Of a stretch of 64,000 nucleotides of DNA, positions 43,309 through 62,775 are shown in pieces. Source of the DNA: Escherichia coli (GTDB taxonomy: Bacteria > Pseudomonadota > Gammaproteobacteria > Enterobacterales > Enterobacteriaceae); assembly GCF_002854065.1 (NCBI RefSeq), contig NZ_CP024147.1. One strand, 5' to 3'. The position numbers and the translations under genes were made by a program. The notes under the pieces were generated by a model that was given only the letters and a program-made list of their open reading frames with translations, made no database searches and had not been told where the DNA came from. The number at the start of each line of letters is the position of its first letter. The first letter of the stretch is position 1.

Positions 43309-43370
43309 TAGCCGTTTACGCTTTGGACTATTCCGCATTACAGAGAAAATGATTTCGAAAAGGTATCAGA

Positions 43371-43739
43371 ATGAAAAAGAATCCCCTTAAATCAAACTTA
43401 ATCTTAGTCAGACCGAGGATCTATATTAACGACAACATCTCGCTGGGGCCGGGGAAGGTTGACCTTTTAAGGGCGATTGATGGCTTTCACTCTCTTTCTG
43501 CGGCAGCTAAAGATTTGGGGATACCTTATAAAAAAGCATGGCTCTTAATTGACACTTTGAATAAAGGGATTGGTCAGCCAGTTGTAACCACTTCCACTGG
43601 TGGTAACAAGGGCGGTGGTACAGTTCTGACGCCATTGGGGCGTAGCCTGCTGATCTGGTATGACCAGGCCGAGGCCCACCTCAATGAGCAATCTCAGCAA
43701 CAGTTAATCGAACTTGAAAAGATTCTTTTTGGAAAATGA
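43371..43739 (+). CDS. ModE N-terminal-domain-like winged-helix regulator
   Basis: LGPGKVDLLRAIDGFHSLSAAAKDLGIPYKKAW...GGNKGGGTVLTPLG matches the ModE-type HTH pattern. Confidence 0.6.
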   Translation: MKKNPLKSNLILVRPRIYINDNISLGPGKVDLLRAIDGFHSLSAAAKDLGIPYKKAWLLIDTLNKGIGQPVVTTSTGGNKGGGTVLTPLGRSLLIWYDQAEAHLNEQSQQQLIELEKILFGK

Positions 43740-43784
43740 CAGAGACCTTTGTTATCCATCGGGAAAATAGAGTGACAGCAATGC

Positions 43785-43810
43785 ATGAAGGGGGCTAATG
43801 CCCCCTTCAT
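43785..43810. terminator. 11-bp perfect palindrome, near-copy of the hairpin at 41703
   Basis: ATGAAGGGGGC taat GCCCCCTTCAT between convergent ModE-like gene and arsA2. Confidence 0.55.
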
Positions 43811-43812
43811 TA

Positions 43813-45570
43813 TTACTTCGCCATTTCTTCCAGCAGGTCAATACCAACCGGCTCTTCGCTCTGTAGCGCTGTTAATGCAATACGCTTTGCATACTGCTCT
43901 TCCACATCAGAGATGAGAGGCAGCTCGCGGTTAGCTCTGGTCTTCAGGAAAGGTGAAGACGGCTCAGCAGCTGCCAGGCTGTTATTCACAACCCATGCCC
44001 ACGGCTCAATGCCAGCCCGACGCAGATCCTGCTGCAGGTTAGCGGCTTCCAGTACAGGTGTCGTTTCGGCAAGCGTCACGATAATCACCTTCGTCTTCTC
44101 CGGGTCCTGCAATTGCATCATTGGCGTCATCACATGGTCATGTGTTTGCCCCATCTGGCGCACCATTTCCCGGTGATAGGCTCCAGTCGCATCCAGTAGC
44201 AGAAGTGTGTGACCCGTTGGCGCGGTGTCCATAATGACAAAATGATCGTCTGCCTCTTTGATTATCCGCGAGAATGCCTGGAAGACGGCGATCTCTTCAG
44301 TACATGGTGAGCGGAGATCTTCTTCCAGCACCGCCAGCCCCTCAGCGTCTAATCCTTTGCCCTGATTCTCCAGTACAAAACGGCGATAACGCTCTGTCTC
44401 CACCTTCGGATCGATACGGCTGACCTGCAGATTTGGCAGCGAGCCATCCAGCGTGTAAGACAGATGTGCTGCCGGATCGGACGTGGTCAGATGGACTTTA
44501 TGACCGCGTTTTGCCAGCGATACCGCGACCGATGCTGCAACAGTCGTTTTGCCCACGCCGCCTTTCCCCATCGTCATTACCAGCCCTTTGCCTGTCAGAC
44601 TGAGTTCATCCACTAACGAGGAAAGTTTCGGTAAATCCAGAGCATTTAGCGTTGTATTGGAGAGAGACAGTGGCGCTTTGCTCTCTGTTAATAACTCTCG
44701 CAGGGCTTCCAGACCGACCAGATTAAATGGCTTCAGAGACAGCTGCGAGCGGGGAAGATTAACCAGATTATCAGGCATTGCCTGTAATGCTTTTTCTTCC
44801 CGAGCCAGAATACTTTGCGCCAGTGGATCATTTTCACCGGCAAACGGTGGCAGCACACCATTAATGGCAAGGTGTTGATGCTGCAAACCAATAGCAGAAA
44901 GCTCATCGTGCGTATGAGAAACCTCTTTCAGCGTTGAAGCCTGAGCTCGGGCAACCAGCACTAAGCGTGTGAGAGCTGCGTCGGACAGCGCTTTAACCGC
45001 ATCGGAGTACTGGTGCTGTTGTTTCTCAAGCCCTACCAGAGGTCCAAGGTTTGCAGCGGCATCAGGGTTCGCTTCGAGATAACCGCTCCAGGCTCCCGGC
45101 AATTCAAGCATGCGGATGGTGTGACCGGTTGGCGCGGTATCAAATACGATATGGTCATATTTTCCCCGCAGCTCATGATTGGTCAGCAGACCAGTAAACT
45201 CATCAAACGCAGCGATTTCCGTGGTGCATGAGCCGGAAAGCTGCTCTTCAATGCTGCTGACCACATCGGCTGGCATCAGCCCGCGAACAGGGTCGAGCAC
45301 ACGGTCACGATAGGCTTGCGCTGCAGCCATCGGATCAACTTCCATCGCGGCAAGATTTTCTACAGTACTGATATCTGTGATTCGGTGGCCGATAGTCTGG
45401 CTAAATACCTGGCCGACATTGGAAGCCGGATCGGTACTCACCAGAAGCGTTCTCTTACCCTGATCGGCCAGCCATACTGCAGTAGCACAGGCCAGGGATG
45501 TCTTACCCACTCCACCTTTACCAGTGAAGAAGATGAACGGGGGAATGTCTTTTAAAAATGGCATATTCAT
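43813..45570 (-). CDS. arsA: second arsenite pump ATPase ArsA paralogue
   Basis: Start [25 protein letters not shown]; duplicated P-loops and DTAPTGH motifs; diverged from the copy at 38174. Confidence 0.85.
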   Translation of the reverse strand: MNMPFLKDIPPFIFFTGKGGVGKTSLACATAVWLADQGKRTLLVSTDPASNVGQVFSQTIGHRITDISTVENLAAMEVDPMAAAQAYRDRVLDPVRGLMPADVVSSIEEQLSGSCTTEIAAFDEFTGLLTNHELRGKYDHIVFDTAPTGHTIRMLELPGAWSGYLEANPDAAANLGPLVGLEKQQHQYSDAVKALSDAALTRLVLVARAQASTLKEVSHTHDELSAIGLQHQHLAINGVLPPFAGENDPLAQSILAREEKALQAMPDNLVNLPRSQLSLKPFNLVGLEALRELLTESKAPLSLSNTTLNALDLPKLSSLVDELSLTGKGLVMTMGKGGVGKTTVAASVAVSLAKRGHKVHLTTSDPAAHLSYTLDGSLPNLQVSRIDPKVETERYRRFVLENQGKGLDAEGLAVLEEDLRSPCTEEIAVFQAFSRIIKEADDHFVIMDTAPTGHTLLLLDATGAYHREMVRQMGQTHDHVMTPMMQLQDPEKTKVIIVTLAETTPVLEAANLQQDLRRAGIEPWAWVVNNSLAAAEPSSPFLKTRANRELPLISDVEEQYAKRIALTALQSEEPVGIDLLEEMAK

Positions 45571-45590
45571 CAGTGATAGCTCCTCTGGAA

Positions 45591-45953
45591 TTAAGGCATA
45601 CGTGGAATGCTGCAGCAACGCGGTTGCGTACTGTCTTCACTCCAGTCCTGAGTTAGCGGAATATCTGCCCAACGGGCGATATCTTCACGAGTCGGCAGTT
45701 TGCCTGCCATCACCAGCTTGCCGTCGAGCAAGGTGACAGGGAGGGATTCCATCCCTGATGTGTTCATAAACTCTTTGATTACAGGGGTATTCAGGAACTG
45801 CTGCGGGTTTTTCGCAAGGCTGTAGCGCTGAATATCAACGCCATTCTTTTTCGCCCATTCGGCGCTGGCATTCCATTTGACGGCTTCGTCGCTCACCACA
45901 ACGCTGCTGGTTGCGCAGCAGCCTGCTGCTTCAAAGATCTCAATTTTTGACAT
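45591..45953 (-). CDS. arsD: divergent ArsD-like metallochaperone
   Basis: 120 aa; vicinal Cys pair (AAGCCATS) at the ArsD Cys12/13 position but lacks Cys18; C-terminal CC. Confidence 0.7.
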   Translation of the reverse strand: MSKIEIFEAAGCCATSSVVVSDEAVKWNASAEWAKKNGVDIQRYSLAKNPQQFLNTPVIKEFMNTSGMESLPVTLLDGKLVMAGKLPTREDIARWADIPLTQDWSEDSTQPRCCSIPRMP

Positions 45954-46028
45954 GGATTGTTTACCTCAGTGTTTAGTCATTTGGCTTTACACTGAGGTAA
46001 ACGAAGGTGGTGGGAAAAAGATGCGCGA

Positions 46029-46586
46029 TTAATTCATTTTTTTGTGGCAGCAGACAAAAGATGTGTCATCCGCCTCAATCTGGCAGAGTTCTGTCATCGT
46101 CTCTTTCAGGTGTTTTCTGGCCCGAAGTAGTCGGGATTTAAACGCTGTAAGCGTGATTCCCCATTCATCGGCCAGGGACTGCTGGGGACGCCGGTTAAGG
46201 TCGGACTCTTCAATCAACCACCGCTCATCTTCGGGTAAAGCCTGTAATGTTTCAGGCAGGCAAATATCCAGTGTTGAGATTGCATCAAGGGATGCGTCTG
46301 TTAATAGGGCATCTTCTTCCAGCTCAACAAACGCCCTGGTGGTTCGGTACTCATCAATCAGCAGATTCCTTGCTACCCGATACAACCAGGCTCGCGGATT
46401 TTCCATCTCACAAAAAATGTCTGAATGGGCTCGGGCACGCAGGAAAAGGTCTTGCAGAAGGTCTGCTGCTTTTTCGCTATCGCCTGTCTTCGATATCAGA
46501 AAGCGAGAAAATTCGCCTTCATGCTGCCGCCAGAACACGCTCATACAGCTGTTGAATGCTGTTATGTCACTCATACTAACCTTCAA
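46029..46586 (-). CDS. sigma-70 family (ECF-like) RNA polymerase sigma factor with Cys-rich C-terminal tail
   Basis: Region 2-like [13 protein letters not shown]...[15 protein letters not shown] and region 4-like HTH; C-terminus [16 protein letters not shown]. Confidence 0.6.
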
Positions 46587-47293
46587 ATTTTGCTCTGATT
46601 AACCCGTCGGGAAAGTTCTTCTGCAGACTCTTTTCGTTCACTGTAGCGATCGACAAGATAGGCAGAATTTGCCCGGGTCAACAATGTAAACTTCATCAAT
46701 TCTTCCATCACATCCACGATGCGGTCGTAATATGGTGACGGTTTCATACGTCCATCGTCATCAAACTCCTGCCAGGCTTTTGCTACCGAGGACTGGTTCG
46801 GAATAGTGATCATTCTCATCCAACGACCAAGCACGCGCATCTGGTTGACTGTGTTGAATGACTGGGAACCTCCACACACTTGCATAACAGCCAGAGTTTT
46901 TCCCTGAGAAGGACGAACAGCACCTTCAGATAATGGTATCCAGTCAATTTGTGCCTTCATAATACCAGTCATCGCTCCGTGTCGTTCCGGAGAGCACCAC
47001 ACCATTCCTTCAGACCAGCGGACCAGTTCACGCAACTCCATAACTTTTGGATGTGACTCCGGTGCATCATCAGGAAGTGGAAGGCCAGATGGATTAAAAA
47101 TGCGGACTTCTGCGCCCATCGCAGTTAACAACCGACCAGCTTCCTCTGTCGCCAGTCGACTGTATGAGCGCTCACGAACTGAGCCATAAAGCATTAGTAT
47201 ACGAGGGGGGTGAGATATTGTCGGTATCCCCATTTTTTGCTCAGTTATTGCAGCATCAAATAAATCAGGAACTATATTATTTAGCTTATTCAT
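46583..47293 (-). CDS. arsH: ArsH, NADPH-dependent FMN reductase family
   Basis: 236 aa with [12 protein letters not shown] flavodoxin-like motif. Confidence 0.85.
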
Positions 47294-47391
47294 TTTTTAT
47301 TTTCCCTATAGATTCGGGATCTTAGTAGGATGGATTCAGACGGTTCGATGCAGCTTTCGTCAATCATGACAGTTATGAGTTTTTCGGTTAC

Positions 47392-47715
47392 TTATCCATT
47401 TTTGCCAGCGGGTTCCGTAACATCTGTTTTACTGTTTACACAGCACTCTTCACGTAAGAATTCGATGATAGCTTCCAGTATTTCGTATTGAGAGACGCAC
47501 ATGAGCGTTCGACTCTCCCGGTTTTGTGTGACGAGTCCTACTGATACTAAGGCTGAAATATGATGACTTAACGTTGATGAGGGAATGCCAAGCTGCTTTT
47601 GCAATTCACCTACAGGCAAACCTTGTTCTCCAGCTTTTACAAGATGTTTGAATATGAACAAACGGGTCGGGTGACCCAGCTCTTTTAGTGCTTTAGCTAC
47701 TTCTTCCAATTGCAT
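47392..47715 (-). CDS. arsR: ArsR/SmtB-family repressor (second ars regulator) with C-terminal vicinal cysteines
   Basis: 107 aa, HTH LPVGELQKQLGIPSSTLSHHISAL, C-terminal EECCVN. Confidence 0.75.
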   Translation of the reverse strand: MQLEEVAKALKELGHPTRLFIFKHLVKAGEQGLPVGELQKQLGIPSSTLSHHISALVSVGLVTQNRESRTLMCVSQYEILEAIIEFLREECCVNSKTDVTEPAGKNG

Positions 47716-47820
47716 GTGACAACCCTCTGTCTAATGATATTTCGATAATACCAGAAATATCTTGACCAGAATTATATTTCGATTATTCTAGAAATGTAGA
47801 TTTTGTCAAGAGGGTTTAGT

Positions 47821-48954
47821 ATGAATAGTTGGATTTCTATGCTGCAAGATGCCGCAGAGATGTTTTTGTTTTTGGCCGTCGAGCTATCTTTGCTGTTTAT
47901 TGTCATCAGTGCCGGTGTGAGCCTGATAAGGCAAAAGGTCCCGGACCATAAAATCCAGCAATTGTTGGGGGCGAAAAAAGGAAAAGGCTACCTGCTGGCC
48001 TCGTTGTTGGGAGCCGTTACCCCTTTCTGTAGTTGCTCAACAATTCCAATGCTACGAGGGTTGTTGTCGGCGAAAGCAGGGTTTGGTCCGACACTCACTT
48101 TTTTGTTTGTTTCACCGTTGCTTAATCCCATTATCGTGGGGTTAATGTGGGTTACCTTTGGCTGGAAAGTAACTTTGTTGTACGCGATCATCGCTGCCGG
48201 TGTCTCAGTCCTTGCCAGTATCGTATTGGATTTACTAGGATTTGAACGTCATATTGTTGATCACAAAAACTCAGCATCAAGTGGTTGCGCCACCAAATGT
48301 GATGATTCCGAAGCTTCGGTAAAAACGTCGGCGGGTTCCAGTTGTTGCAGCACTAGCTCGACTCAATTGCCTGTAAAAACGAGTTGCTGTACTTCATCAG
48401 CGAACCCCATAATTAACTTAAGGACGGTAAAGAACGAGCAGAACGTATCAACGTGTTGTTCATCAATATCATCTGAACAACCAGCTGTTAGCTGTTGCAG
48501 CAGCGAGAATCTGGGCAATGTGAATCTCACACCGAATACCACCTCTGGCCCAATAAAGTTAGCTATGAAAGATGCCTTACAGCAGTTTAAGGATGTTCTG
48601 CCTTATCTTTTGTTAGGTGTATTAATAGGTTCATTTATTTATGGCTTTATCCCTTCAGAGTGGATTGCAGCTCATGCCGGAGCAGATAATCCCTTAGCCA
48701 TACCGCTGAGTGCAGTTGTTGGTATTCCGTTGTATATACGCGCAGAGGCAGTGATACCACTTGCATCAGTGCTGATGACTAAAGGAATGGGCCTGGGGGC
48801 ATTAATGGCCTTGATAATCGGTAGTGCTGGAGCGAGTTTGACAGAAGTAATACTGCTTAAATCAATGTTCAGAATGCCTATGATAGTCGCTTTTCTGACA
48901 GTTATCTTAGGTATGGCAATTCTAATGGGTTATCTGACTCAATTCTTGTTTTAA
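47821..48954 (+). CDS. arsP: ArsP-type permease with extended Cys/Ser-rich loop
   Basis: TPFCSCS motif in TM region; ATG at 47821 after GAGGG; large S/T/C loop with four CC doublets. Confidence 0.75.
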   Translation: MNSWISMLQDAAEMFLFLAVELSLLFIVISAGVSLIRQKVPDHKIQQLLGAKKGKGYLLASLLGAVTPFCSCSTIPMLRGLLSAKAGFGPTLTFLFVSPLLNPIIVGLMWVTFGWKVTLLYAIIAAGVSVLASIVLDLLGFERHIVDHKNSASSGCATKCDDSEASVKTSAGSSCCSTSSTQLPVKTSCCTSSANPIINLRTVKNEQNVSTCCSSISSEQPAVSCCSSENLGNVNLTPNTTSGPIKLAMKDALQQFKDVLPYLLLGVLIGSFIYGFIPSEWIAAHAGADNPLAIPLSAVVGIPLYIRAEAVIPLASVLMTKGMGLGALMALIIGSAGASLTEVILLKSMFRMPMIVAFLTVILGMAILMGYLTQFLF

Positions 48955-49412
48955 AGCATTACAACAAGGGTCTTCTGCCTCAAGATCGAAGACCCTTCAG
49001 TTTCACTAGCAGATTGCCAGTTCTAGTAGCCAATTAAGAGAGGAGTGGATTGTTCTTTGGGTATTCGCAAACCCAGCAACGGTAAAATCAGGACTGACCC
49101 AAAAATTCAACGAGAATCCACCCCTTTAAATCTTTGATCCCTTCCCGGAAGCAGTATACGGCATATCTGAGTTAATCGTTTCTATTGGAGCTTCAGGGAA
49201 GCGACTCTTAATAGAAATCTGTTAATACTGTCCAAAACTGATTCCCTTTATCCCGAGCTGAACCGTAACAAAACCATCTCTCTTTGAGATCTCACATACT
49301 CAACGAACATAAGCCATTGCTGCTACATACAATTTTACGAAGCATATCACCTTAGTTGATCATGAAATCCATCCTGAATACAGATTGATTTTTATACTAT
49401 ATTAAGTGAGAT

Positions 49413-50756
49413 ATGATCTTCTTTAGAGTTGAGCTAAAAGGAGTCGAGGCGATGGCCAGGATAATCCAATCAGCCGGTATCAATCATGGTGCAACAGCAA
49501 AAATAATTTCCGATTCAATAGATTATAACTCCGGCATACATATTGCAGGATTACCAACGCTATATAATAAAGATGGTCATTTTGTAGAAATTGTAAATTT
49601 GTGGTTTTTGGATTTGATAACCGTTAAGAGGCTAGAGGATATTAGTTCTTCAGCCAGAGCAATTCTTCGTTACTGGTCTTTTCTAGAACGAGAAGAGCTT
49701 ACATGGAGTCATTTTCCTCCAGTGAAACGCCTGAAACCCACATACCTTTTCCGTAGCAACGACTTGTTAAAAGCAGTTAAAGAGGGAAGACTGGCGTACT
49801 CAACTGCAAATACTTATATGGGACATTTAGTTCAGTTTTACATCTGGGCAATTGAAAATCATCATCTTGTCATATCAAGTGAAAAAGAAGCTCCCTTTAC
49901 TATTGAGTTTGTTAAGCGTAACAATAGAGGCCTGCTGGCACATCTTCGCCCAATGATCAGTGTGCAAACGAGCGATTTACGTATCCGCGTTCCTAAAGTT
50001 ACAAACGCCGAGATCCAGTCATTAACTCCTTTAACTCAAGATCATCTTTCCTTACTATCATTCAACTTAAGCCATCAATCTGTTGAATTTATGTTGATGA
50101 CTTTACTGGCCTGTAAAAGTGGTTTGAGACTTCGTGAAGCATGTAGCCTCACAATTGAGGCTTTATCTCAAGCTTTGCCCGCCAACGAATTAAAGCTACG
50201 CTATATGATCAACATTTGGCCCCACAATGGTGTTGATACAAAATTTAGAAAAAAAAGAAATATTGAAGTCCCCTGGCCTCTACTAAACGCATTACAACGC
50301 TACTCGCTGTCAGAAAGAAGGCAAAAAAGACTTTCAAAATTACAGACAAAAATAGCCATTCCCTCAATTTCGGAAAAGATTAAAGAATCCCACAATAAAG
50401 CATCTCGATTCGAACCTCTTTTTATCAGTCAGCAAGGAAATTGTATCCAGCCCGAAGTTCTAAATGCAAGGTGGGTTGCATTTAGAAATGAACTTGCCAA
50501 AAAAGAACCTAGTTTTCGTTATCGTTTCCACGACCTCCGATGTACCTATGCCACATACAGACTTCAAGACCTGCTGGATAGCAATCTCTCAGAAGGGGAT
50601 GCCCTAGACTGTCTTATGGGATGGATGGGACACAATAACGAAAGAACCACATTTAAATATATCCGCTACTTGAAGAAAAACGAGATGCTCAAGTGTGCTT
50701 TTTCGCTATTAGACTCAGTGATGGATAATGCAATAAGGGATAATTTAAATGACTGA
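49413..50756 (+). CDS. tyrosine site-specific recombinase (first of trio)
   Basis: R...HxxR...H...Y signature: LRLREACSL, FHDLRCTYATY, GHNNERTTFKYIRY. Confidence 0.8.
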   Translation: MIFFRVELKGVEAMARIIQSAGINHGATAKIISDSIDYNSGIHIAGLPTLYNKDGHFVEIVNLWFLDLITVKRLEDISSSARAILRYWSFLEREELTWSHFPPVKRLKPTYLFRSNDLLKAVKEGRLAYSTANTYMGHLVQFYIWAIENHHLVISSEKEAPFTIEFVKRNNRGLLAHLRPMISVQTSDLRIRVPKVTNAEIQSLTPLTQDHLSLLSFNLSHQSVEFMLMTLLACKSGLRLREACSLTIEALSQALPANELKLRYMINIWPHNGVDTKFRKKRNIEVPWPLLNALQRYSLSERRQKRLSKLQTKIAIPSISEKIKESHNKASRFEPLFISQQGNCIQPEVLNARWVAFRNELAKKEPSFRYRFHDLRCTYATYRLQDLLDSNLSEGDALDCLMGWMGHNNERTTFKYIRYLKKNEMLKCAFSLLDSVMDNAIRDNLND

Positions 50757-52472
50757 TAAAATCCCTCAATCCAGACTCGGCCATGAAATACTACTGGAGG
50801 TTACAGATGGTGGAAATCGTTCTAAAACACTAGATTTCAATCGCTACAACTATTTATACTTCCCCACTCGAAATAAAATAAATAGAGGTCACAGTACATT
50901 TCAAGATAGATCAGTCAGCGCTGAATCGTTATATGTAGCATTCAGAGATTCAGACTACTCATCAGCCACAAAATATTATCTTTTTGAATACCTCAGGCAA
51001 TATATTGTATTTTGCGACAAGTGTCACCATCCCATTTTCACTAATGAATCCGTGCAGGCCTACTGTGATCTCCTTATTTATAAAAATAAATCAGGAATTA
51101 TTTTGAATAGTACTTATACTGCTATCATTAGTGCCACAAAACGCTTATTCGTTATGCTTGACTTACCTGGGCGGTGGTTTGATGAATTACCAACCTTAGG
51201 AAAGTCACAGGCACAGCCCTATAAGGCCTATAGTGACAATGATTTAAAAAAACTACTCCCTTTACTGAGGATATTTTTCAAGCAAATTTCCAATAAGTTC
51301 CTACAAGACCCCGCTTTGTATCTTTCTCAAGGTAAGAATGAAACTGATATGTTTTTCAGGTGGAATGGTAAAATATATGCAGTATATGGTAGTGTCGGGC
51401 AACTAATGGCTTCTGCTGTATATCTACTGTCTTACTATACATGGGCAAACACAAATACATTACTTTCTCTTGAAAGACCAGACATATGTGAAAGTAATGT
51501 AAATGGAGAATGGTACCAAATGCCAGCATTTAAGCGCCGGGCATTTAGAGTCATCACTATTCAGATCGGTGCCCACGACCAGATCAACATTCCAAAGTAT
51601 TCAATGGAATTTTTCAACCAACTTCTAAAAGTCTCAAAAGCTATTTCAGTTGAAAGTAACTTACTTTTTCAGTCCGGTTCATGTAATCGCATCACCCCAT
51701 TATCAGCGGTCCACTTACAAAATTTCAACAGTTTTCTCAAAAAGAACTTTAGATTAACTGATGATAAAGGACTTAGCTATCACCTGTAATATCGAGATTT
51801 CGTGCTACTGGTAGTCAATTTACGCAATTGCATTACTCTCATACACATAGTGCATCGCTATTAGGAAATTCACCGAAAACAACTCGCAAGCATTATTCAG
51901 AAGGGAATGAATACCAAAATCAGTCAATGCTCCAGGACTCTGTCTCTGTTTTTGCAGACAAGGCGGTAAATGGCGGGAATATAGAGACGTCTAAAAAAAG
52001 AATAAAAAGTGAACTTAATGTTGAGATTTTAACATATGAAAGTATGCTTAAAATGAAATCTCCACCAATGCGACAGGCCCACGGCAGTTACTGTAAAGAT
52101 CCATTCGGGGAGCAGGCTAAAAAGTTCTTGCTACGCGCCCAACGTCACGATTTGCTTTCTACAGAAAAATTTGCTTGCTCAGATCTACTGATGTGTTTTT
52201 CCTGTCCTCATCAAGTTGTGATAGCTGAACCTACTGATATTTGGTGTTTGCTGAGTTTTAAAGAATGCATAGAAGAGAGTATTTACAAGCATGTCAATCA
52301 CACTCATTTCCATAATAACTATGACTCTGTGTTGTCGGCAATTGAAAAAATTTTAATGAGTATTGATAAAAAAATACTTTCAAGTGCAACTCAAAAATTT
52401 CTCGATGAGGGTCCTCACCCTTTATGGAGAGACCAGTCATTTCTATATCCATATAGCAATAAGGATACATGA
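50749..52472 (+). pseudogene. tyrosine recombinase (second of trio) interrupted by a frameshift within the catalytic region
   Basis: ORF 50749-51789 ends ...DDKGLSYHL-stop; the overlapping frame continues ...LSPVISRFRATGSQFTQLHYSHTHSASLLGNSPKTTRKHY, carrying the box II and Tyr motifs; frames overlap only in 51777-51789. Confidence 0.6.
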
Positions 52473-54271
52473 TGAAAAAAGATACATTAAAAATTTATTT
52501 ACCCGATAGTGTAAATGAGAATCAGTGTCCTGAGGCTTGTGATGTAATATTTCTTCATAGAAGGCAATGCTGGGGGGAGTTAAATGACATTCCTATTTGC
52601 ATTGATAATAAGGGGAATGTAGTCGCCAGGTTTGGCGATATCATATGGAATTTGGAGCCTCTGGTCGTAACTAAAAATGCAACACATAGGCAAATTAATT
52701 TCTCAGTACTAAAGTCCCATCCATCTCTCTTATATGAGATGAAACTCATTTGCTACGGTTGGCTGTTCACAAAGAACATGCAATACAGTTTACCGACTAA
52801 AATATCAACAATCATCGGAAGAGCATCGGGTCTGAAGATGAGTTATAAATATCTGATGTCAAATTCCCTGGATAGTATTTCTCGTATATGCGAACCTGAA
52901 ATATGGGGGAAATATCTGAACTTTCTTGAAGAACAAAAAAAGAGCGCAGGGACTTTAGTTCATATACTGTGTTCCCTTCAGCAAGCCTATCTACTATTTC
53001 CATGGATGGGACTTGATTACCGAGAAATTAAATTCAGCCCTACGAATTTAAGTAAAAAAATATGTCGAGATGAAGCAATTGAGAGAGCACAAACCCTGGC
53101 TATACCGGAAGATATCGCAGATAAATTATTACACTTTGCAGTAAACCTCGTAGATACCGCATGGCAATACAGGGAGCAACTGGGTGAAACAGAACGACGC
53201 ATTCAGGAAAACTATAAGTTAGGAGAACAGGCGGTTCAAAACAAAATAATATCGGGCCAATGGAAGTGGCTAACGACTGAAGAAGGTACCCCTGCTTTTA
53301 GACACCATTTTGCCAAAGAAGCGGCCCGCTTCTTCCCCTTTAACCCAGCTGAAATCATATCTGAACTTCTCACTGACTACCCTGATCGCCCGACAGATGC
53401 TAATGGTTCCTGGTGGCATTTACAGCGAGGCAATCTTACATCAGCCTGTTTTGTTTGCTGTGCTGCATTCTCAGGTATGCGGGAAAGTGAACTTTATGAG
53501 CTAACATCTGAGAGTTATTACAATGCTGTTTACAGCGGCAGAACCTTTCATTTTCTAAAAGGCAAGACTCATAAAATGGGGGAAAGGCATACTGAGTGGG
53601 TTGTTGCCCCTATCGTTCAAAAAGCAGTCGAAGTTATGAGTGCCTTAACGAAACACTTAAGAGAGTATTTGCTACAAGATGCTTCAACTGCACGGGATAA
53701 AGAACTCGCGCAATGCCTTTGGCTTTCCCAGGGGCAGCGCTCAACTCAACCCAAAAGAATATCATGCTGGGCCCTACGCCTCACAAATTTCTCCAAATAC
53801 TCTGGTGCAATCGTTTCTGAAAAAGATTACGCAGAATGCCTTCGTTCCAACCCGAATAGTCAGGAAAAGATTAAAAATCATGTTCACATTGGAAAACACT
53901 GGGCGCTTTCCCCTCATCAGTTCAGAAGGACTCTTGCCTTTTTTACAATAAAAAATAGATTGGGAAATGCGATAGCCATCAAACAGCAATTCAAGCACCT
54001 CTATCTCCAGATGTCTGAGTGGTATTGCGAAGGTGGTATCCCTTCGCGCCTGGATGAAGTCGAGGCCGACAAAGAATTGCAGAAAATGATAGATACAGTA
54101 AGCAATGAGCAAATTACCCAAAAATACTGGTCATGGTTTCATGGTACCGAAACACTTTCAGGGAGTCATGGCAAAGATATTCTGAAGCTCAGGGATGATT
54201 TGCCAATCATGTTTAGAAGTTGGGAGAAATTATACAAATTGGTGAAAGATAAAAGGATCACGCTACACTGA
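52469..54271 (+). CDS. tyrosine site-specific recombinase (third of trio)
   Basis: 600 aa; FSGMRESELYEL, SPHQFRRTLAFF (HxxR), C-terminal KHLYLQMSEWY; 4-nt overlap with preceding gene. Confidence 0.75.
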   Translation: MMKKDTLKIYLPDSVNENQCPEACDVIFLHRRQCWGELNDIPICIDNKGNVVARFGDIIWNLEPLVVTKNATHRQINFSVLKSHPSLLYEMKLICYGWLFTKNMQYSLPTKISTIIGRASGLKMSYKYLMSNSLDSISRICEPEIWGKYLNFLEEQKKSAGTLVHILCSLQQAYLLFPWMGLDYREIKFSPTNLSKKICRDEAIERAQTLAIPEDIADKLLHFAVNLVDTAWQYREQLGETERRIQENYKLGEQAVQNKIISGQWKWLTTEEGTPAFRHHFAKEAARFFPFNPAEIISELLTDYPDRPTDANGSWWHLQRGNLTSACFVCCAAFSGMRESELYELTSESYYNAVYSGRTFHFLKGKTHKMGERHTEWVVAPIVQKAVEVMSALTKHLREYLLQDASTARDKELAQCLWLSQGQRSTQPKRISCWALRLTNFSKYSGAIVSEKDYAECLRSNPNSQEKIKNHVHIGKHWALSPHQFRRTLAFFTIKNRLGNAIAIKQQFKHLYLQMSEWYCEGGIPSRLDEVEADKELQKMIDTVSNEQITQKYWSWFHGTETLSGSHGKDILKLRDDLPIMFRSWEKLYKLVKDKRITLH

Positions 54272-54310
54272 ACTCTGCATAGTTATTGTAAGAACGGATA
54301 TGATTGTGAG

Positions 54311-54565
54311 ATGGAAGGGGTCATTAACCCAGCATTTTGTATAGATTGTAGTACAAATGGTAGTATTATTGATGGCGAACAAGCTGCCTGGTGGAAAAGC
54401 AAACATAATGCACTGATCTTATATTTGAGTGAAAACGCAGAGATATCTACTGCTGTTTATATTCACTGCCTAACACAAATTCATGCAGCTGAGAAGGTAA
54501 TGTCTGATTTTTCAATAGAATACATTCCATTTCAGCCCGAAATAGAGATCAGAACAGATGAGTAA
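54311..54565 (+). CDS. small hypothetical protein downstream of recombinase trio
   Basis: 84-aa ORF, 8-nt overlap with next ORF. Confidence 0.4.
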   Translation: MEGVINPAFCIDCSTNGSIIDGEQAAWWKSKHNALILYLSENAEISTAVYIHCLTQIHAAEKVMSDFSIEYIPFQPEIEIRTDE

Positions 54566-55013
54566 AAAAGACAACACACTGCTACTGCTTGAGGCAGCTC
54601 TGGACCGTATTTTACGCGGTGAATCACAGAAAATAGCACCATCCCGAAAACTCAGTGTTCGGGCGGTTGAGGTAGAATCAGGACTCGGTAATGGTAGTGC
54701 ATATTACCACACTAAAATTATCGAAAAAATCAAACAAATAAAAAACTCTTCCATAACGACAGGAAGTTTAAATCATCAACATCGAAAATGGAAACAAAAA
54801 GCACTTAAGGCTGAAAAATTAAAAAACAAATTCCGGGATGAAAACATTGCATTAAAATTATTAAATTCACAAATTGCCGCAGATCAGTATAGACAAATGA
54901 GCACTTTAAGAGATGCCTTACAACGTATATTGGAACTCGAAAAAACAATTGAAGAATTGAACATTGAACTGGTTGAGACCAGACGTAAAAACATTACTCT
55001 ATTTAAGCAATAA
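54558..55013 (+). CDS. small coiled-coil hypothetical protein, possible recombination accessory factor
   Basis: 151-aa ORF, basic and coiled-coil rich, translationally coupled to the preceding ORF. Confidence 0.45.
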   Translation: MSKKDNTLLLLEAALDRILRGESQKIAPSRKLSVRAVEVESGLGNGSAYYHTKIIEKIKQIKNSSITTGSLNHQHRKWKQKALKAEKLKNKFRDENIALKLLNSQIAADQYRQMSTLRDALQRILELEKTIEELNIELVETRRKNITLFKQ

Positions 55014-55738
55014 CTCAGTTATAACACAATACGATTTACAATAGATAGTTTCGCGATGATAAGCATTACTGCGTACCGTGAATATCCTACGTTATACAGG
55101 GTTACGGGTAAAAACTATCGGGTCTGCGGTGAGACATGTCATTTTCATCGGTACATCCCCCGTTAAAGGGGAAATTATCTTTCCGGTCTTCATTTTCTTA
55201 ATAAAGTCCAATTTTTGCTCAGTGTCATCCTGGTATCTCTTTCATTTCTGATTATCCCACACAGAGGATTCAGCCAGAAAAGTACATTTTTCAGTTTCTA
55301 TCCCCTCACTCCGGCTCCTCCCCTTTCAACACTGATTTCGGGAAAACAAGCATGCGCCTAAAAAACAATCAAAACAGTCCGTATAAGTTACTTAGGTTGT
55401 CTGCTACTACAATCCCCTACCTTCTCAGTCAGTTGTTTATGGACTGACAGGAAGTAAAAAAGCCTATTAAAAAGAGCAAAAATAAGCAGCTAAACAAACA
55501 GGAAGCCTCTCAATCAAATGATAGTATTCCGAAATCAGCAGTTCAGCATGTAATAGGTACACGAGGGAGTTATGGTCTCTAATGAGTCGAGTTCACCAAG
55601 CACAAGAAGGATGGAAATTGCCGGACACCAAACTCTGGAAAAGTCCCATCCTGCCCAGAAGCCTTCCCCCACAAGGCTTTCCAGTTTTTCTACAGTTAAA
55701 TCGTGTATGGGTACTGCGTGACCATGCGTTAAATGTTA

Positions 55739-55769
55739 AAGGGCTAAGAGTAGTGTGCTCTTAGCCCTT
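55739..55769 (-). terminator. hairpin downstream of dinQ
   Basis: AAGGGCTAAGAG tagtgtg CTCTTAGCCCTT. Confidence 0.4.
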
Positions 55770-55785
55770 AATTACGTTTCCGCTA

Positions 55786-55869
55786 TCAGTTCAGAAGCTG
55801 AAGCAGAAAGCGGATCAGTTCCAGCAGCGCAATTAACGCCCCAAGAACGATGATTGCTTTATCAATCAC
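55786..55869 (-). CDS. dinQ: DinQ small membrane toxin (27-aa peptide; longer in-frame ATG at 55914)
   Basis: Minus-strand translation gives VIDKAIIVLGALIALLELIRFLLQLLN-stop from GTG 55869; below the size cutoff of the ORF track. Confidence 0.75.
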   Translation of the reverse strand: MIDKAIIVLGALIALLELIRFLLQLLN

Positions 55870-55929
55870 CCGTTTTCTCCATGCGATGGAGTGAGAATGC
55901 ATCCGCTTACTCATCCATTGCCTGTCACG

Positions 55930-56020
55930 GCGCATGCCCTATTGTTAGATAATGGCATTCTCACTCCGGCCAGAGCATCAGTTAACGGCACCACCCGTAC
56001 CACTGATCAGGACTTTGAAA
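55930..56020 (+). ncRNA. agrA: agrA-like antisense region overlapping the dinQ 5-prime leader (approximate bounds)
   Basis: 33-nt core GTTAGATAATGGCATTCTCACTCCGGCCAGAGC (55944-55976), repeated 199 bp downstream; part is reverse-complementary to the dinQ leader segment GGAGTGAGAATGC (55888-55900). Confidence 0.4.
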
Positions 56021-56062
56021 GCGTTTATGCGCATTGCCAGAGTGAAAATGCCTCAGAGCTAA

Positions 56063-56078
56063 CTGGATAATCATACAG
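56063..56078 (-). promoter_or_regulatory. candidate LexA box (CTGT-N8-CCAG) for dinQ
   Basis: Minus-strand CTGTATGATTATCCAG about 150 nt upstream of the longer dinQ start. Confidence 0.35.
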
Positions 56079-56129
56079 TATATTCAGGTTATAAAACCAG
56101 CATGTCCTTGCAATAGTTTCAGTATGGTA

Positions 56130-56227
56130 TTAGCATTGATGCGTTAGATGATGGCATTCTCACTCCAGCCAGAGCCACCAACTCAGGGCTGGAAAGTAAA
56201 AAAACCGACGCAAAGTCGGTTTTTTTA
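56130..56227 (+). ncRNA. agrB: agrB-like small RNA with intrinsic terminator (approximate bounds)
   Basis: Second copy of the 33-nt core (56143-56175, 31/33 identical) followed by ACCGAC gcaaa GTCGGT hairpin and T-run (56197-56227). Confidence 0.4.
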
Positions 56228-56334
56228 CGTCCTGATTCAGACCTCCTTTCAAATGAATAGCCAACTCAAAATTCACACCTATTACCTTCCTCTGCACATA
56301 CGCATTCGTTAAACCATATATGTTTTTGACTTAT

Positions 56335-56391
56335 CCGCTTTGGTTTGTAACGCTGGTGGCGCTGGCGCTACGTCTCTCTTTCACTTTGTAA
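56335..56391 (+). pseudogene. arsB: arsB 3-prime remnant (last about 17 codons)
   Basis: ...PLWFVTLVALALRLSFTL-stop closely matches the C-terminus of the intact island ArsB; no upstream arsB sequence present. Confidence 0.6.
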
Positions 56392-56403
56392 TGAGATAAT
56401 GAT

Positions 56404-56772
56404 ATGAGCAACATTACCATTTATCACAACCCGGCCTGCGGCACGTCGCGTAATACGCTGGAGATGATCCGCAACAGCGGCACAGAACCGACCATTATCC
56501 ATTATCTGGAAACTCCGCCAACGCGCGATGAACTGGTCAAACTCATTGCCGATATGGGGATTTCCGTACGCGCGCTGCTGCGTAAAAACGTCGAGCCGTA
56601 TGAGGAACTGGGTCTTGCAGAAGATAAATTTACTGACGATCGGTTAATTGATTTTATGCTGCAACATCCTATCCTGATTAACCGTCCGATTGTGGTGACG
56701 CCGCTGGGAACTCGCCTATGCCGCCCCTCGGAAGTGGTGCTGGAAATTCTGCCAGATGCGCAAAAAGGCGCG
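56404..56772 (+). pseudogene. arsC: arsC truncated at about codon 123 by IS1
   Basis: MSNITIYHNPACGTSRN... reads into the IS1 terminal repeat at 56773; differs from the island arsC at several residues. Confidence 0.8.
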
Positions 56773-58118: not shown

Positions 58119-59147
58119 TTATGCAGCAACGCCTTCCGGTATCAGCGAAGCAATTTGCTTACGCCATTGCGCTTGCTCCTGTTCGCCTTCTGTACGTTGA
58201 CCATAAAGTTGCGCTATCTGCGTACCATCATGGGCAAACAATTCCAGACTGGTTACGTAGCCATCGCTGGTCGGTTTACGGGTAACCCAGGCTTCAGCAA
58301 TGCTCTCTTCTAATAGATGAAGAGTAAACGTCGGGTTGAAAATATTCAGCCAACCTTTCATTGGCACCACTTTTTCTACCACACCAGTGAAAATCTGTAC
58401 GCAGCCACGGTTGCCAACAAACACCATGATTTCATTACCATCCTGCTGTGCAGATTCAAGAATTTGCGCCAACGCACTGTTGGATACTTTGCAGGCCAAA
58501 TCGTCTGCCACCAGATTGAACGCCTGTTGGCGCGTCAGATTGTGGCGCTTTAGCAACGTAAAAAACTGATGAACGTCGGTCATCGCCCGCCACTCTTGCT
58601 CGACCACAGTGGCATCGGCTCGCGTTTGAACAACTGGCGCATCAACGGCTTTTAACTCAAGCGGCATATTCTCATCGGTGATAAACCGTGCCAGAAGCTC
58701 ACTCCATGCCGCCATATCGGTATTGTCGGTGGCATAAACTTTTAGTAATGCATCACCCTGATGATCAAAGAACTGAATACTCTGGCGTTCGCCACGAGCC
58801 GTGTTTTCTTTGATGTGGAAAACACTGGCCCATTGATTGAGAAACAGACGTAAATCCAGCGCGCGCGGATTGAGGATCAATCCGGCATGTCCGTTCAAAT
58901 GCTGGTTTGTGAACGTACCAACTTGCTCATGGACTGCATATTCATTACGACAAATACATTTGGTTTCGCCAACACTTTCGAGCGCCGCCAGAATTTCACG
59001 GATATCGCCGTGCATCCGCCACGCATCGTGCGTGACGCGTGCAAATGCCAGTTCTGCTTCTCTAATATTCATTAACCCTGCGATGTCACGCGCGTACTTT
59101 CCGGGATTTTGTTCTTTTAACTCAAGCCAGCGTGTGTAGTGGTTCAT
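58119..59147 (-). CDS. chuS: heme utilisation/degradation protein ChuS
   Basis: 342-aa ORF immediately downstream of chuA. Confidence 0.8.
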   Translation of the reverse strand: MNHYTRWLELKEQNPGKYARDIAGLMNIREAELAFARVTHDAWRMHGDIREILAALESVGETKCICRNEYAVHEQVGTFTNQHLNGHAGLILNPRALDLRLFLNQWASVFHIKENTARGERQSIQFFDHQGDALLKVYATDNTDMAAWSELLARFITDENMPLELKAVDAPVVQTRADATVVEQEWRAMTDVHQFFTLLKRHNLTRQQAFNLVADDLACKVSNSALAQILESAQQDGNEIMVFVGNRGCVQIFTGVVEKVVPMKGWLNIFNPTFTLHLLEESIAEAWVTRKPTSDGYVTSLELFAHDGTQIAQLYGQRTEGEQEQAQWRKQIASLIPEGVAA

Positions 59148-59195: not shown

Positions 59196-61178
59196 TTACC
59201 ATTGATAACTCACGAAAATTTTTCCGTTACGACCATCCTGTGGGATGCCTTGCGGCGACCAGTACTCTTTGTCGAAAGCGTTACCCAACACCAAAGTAGT
59301 GGTCATACCTTTGAGCGCCTGTTGTCCTTGATAACTGACGTAGAAATCATTCACGCCATAGCCTGGTTGTTTGCTGTAACTGCTGCTGATATGTGTTGAG
59401 CGATCGGCAAACGTACCAACCCACCCAACAGAGAAGCCACTGTGAGCGATCGGAATATTCAGAGTGCTGGTAACAGTATCCGGGTTAATGCTGGAGATGT
59501 ATTCGCCGGTATCGGTGTCTTTGCCGCGGGTACGGTTATAGGCCACATCAAGGCTAAACAGATCAGTGGTATATTTCGTCATCACATCCCAGCCCCAGAT
59601 TTTGGCGTTCGGGACGTTATACGACATAGTCGTCGCCGCCGCGAAATCGACGGTCGTGGAGATGTAATCCTTCGCTTTGGTATCAAAGTAGCTGGCTTTA
59701 AATTCCAGAGCATCATTGGACAACATCAGGTCATCAAAACGCAGCCCAAAACCGTACTCCTGAGTTTCGTTAGTTTCCGGACGTAAGTTCGGGTTTGGCA
59801 CCCAATAGTTGGTATAGAAGCGACCAATCGAGAAGTGCTTAGAATCGTTATACATTTCGCCCATCGTCGGGGCGCGGAATGCCTGGGCATATGAGCCAAA
59901 TAACATCAGCCAGTTAGTCGGATTGATAGTCATCCCCGCACGAGATGACCATTTGTCGGCATCAACATCTTTGTAACCGTCACTGCTACCGCGATAACTG
60001 TCATAGCGGGTTCCGCCAAGCAGGGTAATCGGCAGATCGCGTAAGGTGATCTCATCCTGTAGCCAGCCGGAGCTAAAATCGATTTTTGCTTGCGGGAAGC
60101 CCGTCGTCGCGCCGCCCGGATGTTGTTCCTGACGATAATACTCACCGCCATATGTCAGTAAGTGAGAAGCGAAACTGTCGGCAAAGAGAGTGGAACGGTT
60201 CTCCAGCCTGGCTCCTTTTGTTATCTGTTCACGATACTCGCCGGAACTCCCCGTGTTTTGCGCATTAATACGGACTTCCGACCAATAAATTTTTGCATCT
60301 GCATTTAACCAGTCGTTGCCCTGCGGGGCGAGTTTATAAGAAAGCTGCGCATCGCGTTGAATTGTTGAACGATCAACCATCGGGTTGCTGCTTTCAGAAG
60401 CCTCAACGGTCTGCGGATTTTTTGGTTCACGCGCGTCGTTGTTGTAGTAACGCACTAAACCGCTCAGAGACTGGGCTGAATCAATTTGCCAGGTCCCTTT
60501 CGCCAGCATGTTATTAATGGACTCGTCATTCGGCGCGGTTTCACCATTGCTTTGCCGTAAATCACCCCGATCGCGACTGGACCAGGCCACAATACCATCC
60601 AGATTTTCAGTTCGCCCAAACGCGCTCGCGCCTAATCCCAGGCTATGGTCCCCCGTACCGCCAGTACCAAAGACACGAAAACCACTGCTTTGTCCTTCCT
60701 GCAATAAATCTTTTGCATCGACCGTATCGTAGGAGATCACTCCACCCAGCGCGCCACTGCCATACAGTAATGCTGAAGGTCCGCGAACAATCTCAACACG
60801 CTTGATCAGCGCCGGATCGAGAAAAGTGCCATTCAGGTGTCCGGTATCCGTTCCCTGGCGAACACCATCGATAAGAACCAGCACGCCGCGATGATCATAG
60901 CCACGCATATTTACATCCTGACCGTTGGTTCGTCCGGTACCATCCAGAGTAATTCCAGGAACATGACGCAGCAGATCGGTGGCTGAAGTAGCCGTTTGAT
61001 TTTCAGGAGCGGAAGTGTCGATGACGCTGACCATCATAGGCGTTTCGAAGGAACTACGGGCATTCCCCGTTGCCGTAACGGTCATGGTTTCAGTAGCAAA
61101 AGCAAACGTTGGCAAGGTGGCAGAAACAGCCAAGGCCAACAAACTCAAACGCAACGAGGTAAATTGCGGACGTGACAT
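59196..61178 (-). CDS. chuA: TonB-dependent outer-membrane heme receptor ChuA
   Basis: 660 aa; signal peptide, TonB box ETMTVTA, C-terminal ...FVSYQW. Confidence 0.9.
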   Translation of the reverse strand: MSRPQFTSLRLSLLALAVSATLPTFAFATETMTVTATGNARSSFETPMMVSVIDTSAPENQTATSATDLLRHVPGITLDGTGRTNGQDVNMRGYDHRGVLVLIDGVRQGTDTGHLNGTFLDPALIKRVEIVRGPSALLYGSGALGGVISYDTVDAKDLLQEGQSSGFRVFGTGGTGDHSLGLGASAFGRTENLDGIVAWSSRDRGDLRQSNGETAPNDESINNMLAKGTWQIDSAQSLSGLVRYYNNDAREPKNPQTVEASESSNPMVDRSTIQRDAQLSYKLAPQGNDWLNADAKIYWSEVRINAQNTGSSGEYREQITKGARLENRSTLFADSFASHLLTYGGEYYRQEQHPGGATTGFPQAKIDFSSGWLQDEITLRDLPITLLGGTRYDSYRGSSDGYKDVDADKWSSRAGMTINPTNWLMLFGSYAQAFRAPTMGEMYNDSKHFSIGRFYTNYWVPNPNLRPETNETQEYGFGLRFDDLMLSNDALEFKASYFDTKAKDYISTTVDFAAATTMSYNVPNAKIWGWDVMTKYTTDLFSLDVAYNRTRGKDTDTGEYISSINPDTVTSTLNIPIAHSGFSVGWVGTFADRSTHISSSYSKQPGYGVNDFYVSYQGQQALKGMTTTLVLGNAFDKEYWSPQGIPQDGRNGKIFVSYQW

Positions 61179-61467
61179 AGCGATTCTCCATGAGGAAAAT
61201 AAAAAATGCTGGCTGCCTGGGTTAATACCGGGGTGGCTGGCGAAAAATAAATTTATTTAAAATTCAGAGCGATAATATTCGCCGGGTGAGTTTACAGGCG
61301 TTTATATCCCATGAAATTGCCTGATAACTCGGCAATTACGCAAAAGCACGCCCTCTTTGTCAGGCAAAACGATATGCCCCATCAGGAGTGAAGAGAGCTG
61401 TGCGTTATCCCTTGCAAATGCTATGGTTTTGTTATCCATATGGTCGTGTTTTGTTAAATGCAAACGT

Positions 61468-61486
61468 GATAATGAGAATTATTATC
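61468..61486. promoter_or_regulatory. Fur box upstream of chuA
   Basis: GATAATGAGAATTATTATC, 17/19 match to GATAATGATAATCATTATC; about 290 nt upstream of chuA start. Confidence 0.6.
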
Positions 61487-61818
61487 GATCAATTTTTTAT
61501 GATCAAGTTTTTTTTTAACCACCATTAACACAATAAACAGGGGGTTATGAAACCTATCCTGCGCCCTGTAAACCACCTTGTTTTTATGGTTATCCCCCCA
61601 TGCCTCATCACTAAATTTTGTCGTTAACAGTGATAATTTTTTCTTCTCTTTGCTCTGCAAGCCTCGATATCTCTGGGTTATCAGCTTTTTCCCGCGATGA
61701 AATTTAGTCGGTAACAAGAACGTTAGCTGACGAAGCATCTTGATAAAAATCAAAAATAAATACGCTTGTAACGCCTTGCGTATTGAATCGACGGTTGTAT
61801 TTCATATATAACTCAAAT

Positions 61819-61837
61819 GATAATCATAATCATTCTC
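61819..61837. promoter_or_regulatory. Fur box upstream of chuT
   Basis: GATAATCATAATCATTCTC, 17/19 match to consensus; 24 nt upstream of ATG 61861. Confidence 0.6.
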
Positions 61838-61860
61838 AATTTGATAAGAGTTCTCACATT

Positions 61861-62775
61861 ATGCCAAGGATCATCACCAGGCCGTTTCTTTTTTCCCCAC
61901 TGACGTTATGTATTTCAGCCGTGGCCTCTGCCGCGAAGACCGCAGTAAAACGAAAAAAATTGTTTACGGCAGTACTGGCTCTTAGCTGGGCTTTTAGCGT
62001 AACGGCTGCCGAACGTATCGTGGTCGCAGGAGGATCGCTGACGGAGCTAATCTACGCGATGGGCGCTGGCGAACGCGTGGTTGGTGTCGATGAAACGACA
62101 TCTTATCCACCAGAAACCGCCAAACTGCCGCATATTGGCTACTGGAAACAACTCAGCAGCGAAGGCATTTTGTCACTTCGCCCGGATAGCGTAATTACCT
62201 GGCAGGATGCCGGGCCACAAATTGTGCTCGACCAACTACGAGCGCAGAAAATCAACGTCGTCACCCTGCCGCGTGTGCCTGCCACCCTTCAGCAGATGTA
62301 CGCCAACATTCGCCAACTGGCAAAAACGCTACAGGTTCCTGAACAAGGCGAGGCACTGGTGACAAAAATCAGCCAACGCCTGGAGCGAGTACAGCAAAAC
62401 GTGGCGGCCAAAAAAGCCCCGGTTAAAGCCATGTTTATTCTCTCCGCGGGCGGAAGTGCGCCACAAGTTGCCGGTAAAGGCAGCGTCGCGGACGCCATTC
62501 TTTCGCTTGCCGGAGCAGAAAACGTCGCTCCCCACCAGCAGTACAAAAGCTACAGTGCAGAATCACTGATTGCGGCTAATCCAGAAGTGATTGTCGTAAC
62601 CTCACAAATGGTTGATGGCGATATTAATCGGCTACGTTCTATTGCTGGAATTACCCACACTGCCGCATGGAAAAACCAGCGCATTATCACCGTTGATCAA
62701 AACCTGATTCTGGGAATGGGTCCGCGTATTGCTGATGTCGTTGAGTCTTTACACCAGCAGCTTTGGCCGCAATAA
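61861..62775 (+). CDS. chuT: periplasmic heme-binding protein ChuT
   Basis: ATG at 61861 downstream of the Fur box; the ORF-track start at 61783 would overlap the Fur box. Confidence 0.8.
   Translation: MPRIITRPFLFSPLTLCISAVASAAKTAVKRKKLFTAVLALSWAFSVTAAERIVVAGGSLTELIYAMGAGERVVGVDETTSYPPETAKLPHIGYWKQLSSEGILSLRPDSVITWQDAGPQIVLDQLRAQKINVVTLPRVPATLQQMYANIRQLAKTLQVPEQGEALVTKISQRLERVQQNVAAKKAPVKAMFILSAGGSAPQVAGKGSVADAILSLAGAENVAPHQQYKSYSAESLIAANPEVIVVTSQMVDGDINRLRSIAGITHTAAWKNQRIITVDQNLILGMGPRIADVVESLHQQLWPQ

Follow-up and report, generated by a model that had tools for sequence, protein, structure and literature searches.

Architecture of the divergent chuA-chuT control region in an Escherichia coli heme-uptake locus, with a candidate FNR site upstream of chuT

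The chu locus and the interval between chuA and chuT

Read from its genes and open reading frames, the end of the window (the whole 64,000-nucleotide stretch of Escherichia coli DNA analysed here) is the chu heme-utilisation locus. The minus strand carries chuS (58119-59147) and chuA (59196-61178, with the A of its ATG at 61178), while the plus strand carries the coding sequence of chuT, also called shuT (61861-62775, starting with the ATG at 61861), and chuW (from 62797 onwards). For an E. coli genome that is 99.9% identical, RefSeq lists the same genes and confirms the identities of chuA and chuT, the latter under the name shuT, with the same PGAP start for chuT as in four other strains. The closest genome has the locus within the acid-fitness island, flanked by dctR and yhiD. 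Of 5426 complete E. coli genomes, 2236 carry the region, every time as a single chromosomal copy, and over an 851-nt query (61100-61950) the window is 99.2% identical to O157:H7 strains. In particular, the chuA-chuT interval is 682 bp long and has the same length in the Sakai strain (NC_002695.2, with the chuA ATG at 4391571 and the chuT ATG at 4392254), with which the window is colinear.

It is very probable, to the point of leaving us little doubt, that these 682 bp form the divergent control region of the Escherichia/Shigella heme-uptake locus, with two Fur-repressed promoters and a long chuA leader. It should be noted that the Fur boxes, the 291-nt leader, the RNA thermometer and the chuT start have already been published, and are in part curated in Rfam. 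Namely, the positions, the conservation and the identity with published loci come from the present analysis, and Fur binding, transcription start sites and the effects of the thermometer, small RNAs and Rho come from the literature. The functional data were obtained in O157 Sakai, UPEC and S. dysenteriae, and we infer that these results transfer unchanged to the strain of the window.

Two side observations concern the surroundings of the locus. In the closest genome, the gorA-slp stretch upstream of it contains IS1 and IS3 copies together with genes for hypothetical proteins, a DEAD/DEAH helicase and an AAA ATPase; it resembles an inserted island and would occupy approximately 41,900-56,500 of the window, a placement that derives only from the correspondence with the closest genome (760-15387). 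In E. coli WP4-S17-ESBL-03 (locus 2231-3412), an IS26 element abuts the intergenic region near position +20 of the chuA leader, and a truncated rlmJ replaces chuA, chuS and their neighbours, the chuT side being intact.

The divergent arrangement is narrowly distributed. A ChuT scan of genome contigs gave 34 loci (33 close relatives and one distant match with 24% identity), and only three of these, from E. albertii and two divergent Escherichia, have chuA and chuT divergently arranged. The ChuT orthologues of Citrobacter, Enterobacter, Kluyvera, Klebsiella, Proteus and Providencia are 55-84% identical and share the same signal-peptide core (MKKL...), but in these six genera chuT is preceded by a receptor encoded on the same strand and only approximately 30% identical to ChuA, and there is no divergent intergenic region. 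Consequently, the chuA/chuT control region is specific to Escherichia/Shigella and, with chuT placed after a different receptor on the same strand, an alignment for footprinting across genera is impossible.

Within the genus, we aligned eight sequences, namely those of the window, Sakai, an O166:H15 strain, E2348/69, UTI89, two divergent Escherichia and E. albertii. Invariant islands cover the part from the chuA start codon to leader position +204 (leader +204 to +291 being almost invariant across Escherichia), the chuA Fur box and promoter with a T/A run, 61534-61547, 61722-61756, and the chuT promoter, Fur box and leader. The variable stretches are the middle of the chuA leader (+21 to +203) and 61550-61620. 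As a side observation, the invariant block at 61534-61547, TAAACAGGGGGTTA, lies at approximately -65 to -78 of the chuA promoter.

Fur boxes, promoters and transcription starts

The Fur consensus GATAATGATAATCATTATC was scanned over the full 64 kb at up to three mismatches, with 100 dinucleotide-preserving shuffles as the null. Two loci gave the only matches at this threshold, both in the interval between chuA and chuT; 0.01 were expected, and none of the 100 shuffles reached 4. Both boxes read on both strands, with two mismatches on the plus strand (17 of 19 consensus bases) and three on the minus strand. The chuA box, GATAATGAGAATTATTATC, spans 61468-61486, so that 290 nt separate its edge at 61468 from the A of the chuA ATG (61178, minus strand), and it is invariant in the eight Escherichia sequences, E. 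albertii included. The chuT box, GATAATCATAATCATTCTC, spans 61819-61837, and its end at 61837 lies 24 nt ahead of the ATG at 61861. At position 10 of this box (61828) the window has A where Shigella and Sakai have G, and it consequently matches the consensus at 17 of 19 bases, as compared with the published 16 of 19.

The original prediction had placed two Fur boxes at exactly these positions and distances, and the consensus scan and the coordinates confirm them. Its reading of the region as iron-repressed heme uptake under Fur is likewise borne out by published work. Namely, Fur ChIP-seq combined with RNA-seq in UPEC CFT073 identifies chuAS and chuTWXYU as direct Fur targets (PMC7157518), and in S. 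dysenteriae a 19-bp Fur site at +1 to +19 of shuT mediates iron repression, as seen with reporters and EMSA (PMC5458455).

On the chuA side, the promoter lies at 61506-61478 on the minus strand, with the -35 hexamer TTGATC at 61506-61501, a 17-bp spacer and the -10 hexamer AATAAT at 61483-61478. No other promoter-like match lies on the minus strand in 61000-62000; this one overlaps the distal Fur box, and both of its hexamers are unchanged throughout Escherichia. An A9 tract (61516-61508) just upstream of it could serve as an UP element. Differential RNA-seq in O157 Sakai mapped a single chuA start at 4,391,862, with a 5' UTR of 291 nt (Sy & Tree 2022, PMC9002310), and RT-PCR in S. dysenteriae put the length of the shuA leader in the range 278-342 nt (Kouse et al. 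2013, PMC3660397). Because the window is colinear with Sakai over the 682 bp, the published start falls at 61469, inside the distal Fur box, and the chuA leader covers 61179-61469 on the minus strand. That said, the base at the transferred start is U, and for this reason the true start may differ from it by 1-2 nt; the -10 hexamer ends 9 nt before the transferred start, at the long end of normal spacing. With the start so placed, the chuA Fur box spans -17 to +2.

On the chuT side, 5'-RACE in S. dysenteriae gave a distance of 42 nt from the shuT start to the ATG (Wei, Kouse & Murphy 2017, PMC5458455). Counting 42 nt upstream of 61861 puts the chuT start at 61819, on the base with which the second Fur box begins; this box then occupies +1 to +19 of the transcript. 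The promoter read from the sequence (61783-61812, plus strand) has the -35 hexamer TTGAAT at 61783-61788, an 18-bp spacer and the -10 hexamer TATAAC at 61807-61812. These hexamers stand at the proper distance from the published start, in a region conserved across Escherichia, and they fit the 62-nt shuT promoter fragment found to be active (PMC5458455). A different plus-strand promoter call, TTCATA-18-CATAAT (61801-61830), was rejected, as it misfits the RACE start and TTGAAT-18-TATAAC fits better. Given the transferred published start sites, the Fur boxes overlap the promoter or the start site at both genes.

The resulting 42-nt chuT leader (61819-61860, plus strand) has its Shine-Dalgarno sequence, AAGAG, at 61846-61850. 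In S. dysenteriae, mutagenesis identified the 42-nt shuT leader as an hsp17-like RNA thermometer, in which U15/U16 act as the anti-Shine-Dalgarno element (PMC5458455). The window shares with that system the 42-nt distance from start to ATG, the Fur site at +1 to +19, the Shine-Dalgarno sequence, the ATG and U15/U16, which are found at 61833-61834; it differs at +39 (61857), where S. dysenteriae has T and the window C. E2348/69 also carries the two window variants, A at 61828 and C at 61857. The ViennaRNA minimum-energy folds of the chuT leader at 25 and 37 °C differ, and pairing of U15/U16 with the Shine-Dalgarno sequence is not clearly seen in them.

Could chuA have a promoter near its ATG and a short leader, the distal Fur box being a relic or serving another transcript? 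Leaders of approximately 290 nt are indeed unusual in E. coli, and a very weak promoter-like match does exist near the chuA start, but it lies on the plus strand, which is the wrong one, and 61179-61468 contains no promoter-like site on the minus strand. What is more, the differential RNA-seq start is single and lies 291 nt out, the RT-PCR estimate of 278-342 nt agrees with it, and the distal box and hexamers are invariant across Escherichia. We consider a short chuA leader very improbable. The 5' UTR of approximately 290 nt that the original prediction had derived from the position of the distal box is matched by both published measurements, and the published mapping favours the long leader over a start close to the chuA ATG. 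A similar question arises at chuT, where the ORF track gives 61783..62775, with a TTG start, and where translation from TTG 61783 would yield a product of 330 amino acids. The frame is open from 61783, and this entry overlaps the second Fur box, on which ground the original prediction preferred ATG 61861. Overlap with a Fur box alone does not rule out a start codon; it is the mapped transcription start and the promoter hexamers that exclude 61783. Namely, 61783-61788 is the -35 hexamer itself and lies upstream of the mapped start at 61819. PGAP, moreover, uses 61861 in all five genomes inspected, and a Shine-Dalgarno sequence is absent before 61783, whereas AAGAG precedes 61861. The chance that chuT is translated from the TTG is thus close to nil, and the preference for ATG 61861 holds, on the PGAP start, the RACE start and the hexamers.

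The start at ATG 61861 has a history of its own. Compared with the proteins of other genera, which begin MKKL..., E. coli ChuT has a 30-residue N-terminal extension. E. albertii and the two divergent Escherichia (cryptic clades) have kept both the upstream ATG and the internal one (positions 2501-2610 compared), and in E. coli a 9-bp deletion has removed the internal, ancestral MKKLF start codon. As a consequence of this deletion, the lineage of the window has no in-frame ATG ahead of the signal peptide other than 61861. Taken together, this speaks for an upstream move of the E. coli ChuT start, by 30 codons, following the deletion, a shift that would explain the location of the published thermometer and Fur site. 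Two further details of this stretch may be mentioned. In UTI89, an in-frame ATG has reappeared, five codons ahead of KKLF, and in the window 61861-61960 encodes two signal-peptide-like segments of ChuT, ..CISAVASA/A.. and ..WAFSVTA/AE...

In mechanistic terms, the region would consist of two back-to-back sigma-70 promoters, approximately 350 bp apart, each repressed by Fe2+-Fur at a near-consensus 19-bp box. With iron plentiful, bound Fur would exclude or block RNA polymerase, the chuA box covering the -10 element and start site and the chuT box covering +1 to +19. Upon derepression, a chuTWXY transcript would begin at 61819, with a 42-nt leader that would itself act as a small RNA thermometer, and would be translated from ATG 61861.

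Elements of the chuA leader

In the long chuA leader, the original prediction saw room for post-transcriptional control, and the literature has demonstrated such control: a FourU thermometer has been described there (PMC3660397), along with CyaR, RyhB, Esr41 and Rho (PMC9002310). The thermometer, shuA_thermo (Rfam RF02597), is found at 61176-61207 on the minus strand, with 60.1 bits against a gathering score of 58, E = 1.1e-8, over its full length (1-32) and with 32 of 32 positions identical to the consensus. In it, UUUU (61199-61196) and the adjoining CC pair with the Shine-Dalgarno sequence GGAGAA (61189-61184). The minimum-energy fold is a 7-bp hairpin in which AUUUUCC (61200-61194) pairs with GGAGAAU (61189-61183), with a predicted free energy of -8.4 kcal/mol at 25 °C and -6.1 kcal/mol at 37 °C, i.e., with a loss of approximately 2.3 kcal/mol. 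The function of the thermometer in the shuA/chuA leader has been established by mutagenesis (PMC3660397), with experiments also in PMC9002310, and U(-19)/U273 and C(-17), the bases mutated in the published work, land on the expected nucleotides of the window. Other Rfam matches, namely Hammerhead_HH9 (61914-61989, 20.8 bits against 52), snoR25 and mir-743, are far below their gathering scores and were regarded as chance matches.

The predicted CyaR pairing site, GCAGCCAGCAUUUU, covers 61203-61216 on the minus strand (leader +254 to +267). It forms the best local duplex of the leader, with nucleotides 20-33 of CyaR as annotated in K-12, at -20 kcal/mol; the scan used a 30-nt sliding window, as unconstrained folding gave unrealistic interactions of 80 nt. 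The position of this duplex fits the published site, which lies approximately 15 nt upstream of the Shine-Dalgarno sequence (PMC9002310). Moreover, the leader has a C-rich, G-poor tract at 61199-61293 on the minus strand (+177 to +271), with 25 C and 13 G, a C/G ratio of 1.9, where the leader as a whole has 1.25; the excess of C over G, taken in 40-nt windows, is greatest (+8) around +201 to +260. Bicyclomycin and truncation data place a repressive, rut-containing segment at +177 to +217, corresponding to 61293-61253, and a Rho termination point at +271, corresponding to 61199 (PMC9002310).

A simple terminator scan also found a weak terminator-like feature at 61339-61366 on the minus strand, with a hairpin at +104 to +121, GCCUGACAAAGAGGGC, followed by UGCUUUUGCG, through +131. 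The 3' end seen by Term-seq at +129, i.e., 61341, lies right after the U run of this hairpin, and the terminator predictor of the same authors gave nothing at +129 (PMC9002310). The hairpin and U run are thus suggestive, and only suggestive, of an attenuator. The hairpin GCCUGACAAAGAGGGC is conserved, which we record as a side observation. The ops element GGCGGTAGnnTG has no match with two or fewer mismatches in 61179-61469 on either strand; a canonical ops element does not account for the effect of RfaH on chuA reported by Nagy 2001, as that work is cited in PMC9002310. As for the leader as a whole, its fold is not significantly more stable than those of shuffled sequences (z = -1.6), and RNAalifold on six Escherichia leaders gave 63 pairs with no compensatory changes and a positive covariation term. 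Consequently, structure beyond the FourU hairpin is unsupported.

In comparison with the shuA/chuA systems studied before (PMC3660397, PMC9002310, RF02597), the locus is the same, and the window shares with them the thermometer, the Sakai leader length and a Fur box overlapping the promoter. The CyaR site and the C-rich Rho-loading tract of PMC9002310 are the same in the window as well. The Sakai leader differs from that of the window by a few point changes, e.g., at 61297, where the window has G and Sakai A. In B2/UPEC strains, by contrast, the middle of the leader (+21 to +203) is strongly unlike that of the window, as already noted in PMC3660397 and PMC9002310. This mosaic conservation, seen at 61267-61449 when the B2 strains UTI89 and E2348/69 are set against the window/O157 type, is an observation in its own right: the 90 nt next to the chuA ATG and the promoter are identical between the two types. 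Such a mosaic leader suggests relaxed constraint or an old recombination patch.

Taken together with the published experiments, these elements would act as follows. A chuAS transcript would begin at approximately 61469, with the 291-nt leader adding post-transcriptional control to repression by Fur. CyaR would pair just upstream of the Shine-Dalgarno sequence and activate chuA translation, RyhB and Esr41 would repress at the chuA ribosome-binding site, and the C-rich tract would load Rho, with termination at approximately +271.

The spacer and a candidate FNR site

Between the two promoters lies a spacer of 330 bp (61487-61818). One could propose that it encodes a small protein, given that a 99-amino-acid ORF (61454-61753, minus strand) and a 26-codon ORF (61547-61627, plus strand) following AGGGGG do exist, and that the motif AGGGGGTTATG is invariant in E. 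coli. Against this, both frames shift from strain to strain through one-base indels, in the T-run (at approximately 61510) and near 61604, the plus-strand ORF has 26, 18 or more than 60 codons depending on the strain, and nothing is annotated there in current RefSeq, so we give a spacer-encoded protein very little credence.

What the spacer does contain is a perfect match, TTGAT-N4-ATCAA, to the FNR consensus TTGATAAAAATCAA at 61740-61753, with its centre at 61746.5, i.e., at -72.5 relative to the chuT start. No other stretch of the window matches without a mismatch, and 0.07 such matches would be expected by chance (approximately 0.002 in the intergenic region), an estimate that is post hoc, since the site was first noticed by eye. 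The site is invariant in the eight Escherichia sequences, although its flanks diverge in E. albertii; the 61-nt block around it is at least 95% identical in all 2236 chu-positive genomes, and the site is intact in the most divergent E. coli copy sampled among these. At class I promoters, FNR binds near -61.5, -71.5 or -82.5, on the activating face of the DNA. The value of -72.5 agrees with this spacing and depends on the transferred chuT start. Two side observations concern the adjacent sequence. The invariant block GTTAGCTGACGAAGCATC (61722-61739) lies immediately upstream of the FNR box, and E. coli HS-02 (locus 296-360) has a change from GTTAGCTGACG to GTTCACGACG in the block that precedes the box, the box itself being intact; chuT of HS-02 is annotated as frameshifted.

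Does FNR act here? The proposal would be that FNR bound at 61740-61753 activates chuTWXY anaerobically from a class I position, as an extra layer on top of the Fur-controlled architecture and not as an alternative to it. In its favour, one can cite the perfect consensus, unique in the window and conserved across Escherichia, as well as the precedent of E. coli hcp, which is directly activated by FNR from -72.5 (Myers et al. 2013, PMC3688515). Furthermore, ChuW and ChuY act anaerobically, and the small RNA FnrS, which depends on FNR, represses the aerobic ChuS (PMC9002310); with chuTWXY serving anaerobic heme degradation and ChuS so repressed, activation of chuTWXY by FNR would be coherent. Finally, a study in APEC reported that chuA-lacZ expression depends on FNR and that a fragment of the chuA promoter is shifted in EMSA (PMC5481319). 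On the other hand, that study names a different, weak site, TTGTAATGTTTCAA, which is absent from the intergenic region of the window at up to two mismatches. Class I FNR promoters are rare, and the DNA here is AT-rich (36% GC) and horizontally acquired, while H-NS masks many good FNR sites in vivo (PMC3688515). The hcp-hcr promoter shares with chuT the -72.5 spacing from a sigma-70 start and the position upstream of anaerobically needed genes; the chuT candidate differs in being situated in a Fur-controlled, AT-rich, horizontally acquired region. Weighing these points, we would give activation by FNR an even chance. The wider reading, that the chuTWXY promoter is under dual control by Fur and FNR and that the anaerobic heme-degradation operon responds to oxygen, is put forward tentatively, at slightly less than even chances.

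What is the value of these results? A reading made from the sequence only had recovered the start-site positions, the 291-nt leader and the chuT start codon, all of which several experimental papers had established. The architecture should therefore hold no surprise for a specialist, and its value is that of confirmation. Two details add modestly to it, namely the conserved FNR box and the shift of the E. coli ChuT start codon. Of these, the FNR site is possibly one new detail of the chuA-chuT region: the open-access papers on chu/shu regulation contain no mention that we found of such a site near chuT, and other journals may report one. If FNR does act at chuT, this would mirror the repression of the oxygen-dependent ChuS by FnrS, and the locus would switch its heme-degradation pathway by oxygen. 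In that case, oxygen would join iron, temperature, cAMP and Rho, the known inputs of this virulence-associated heme system.
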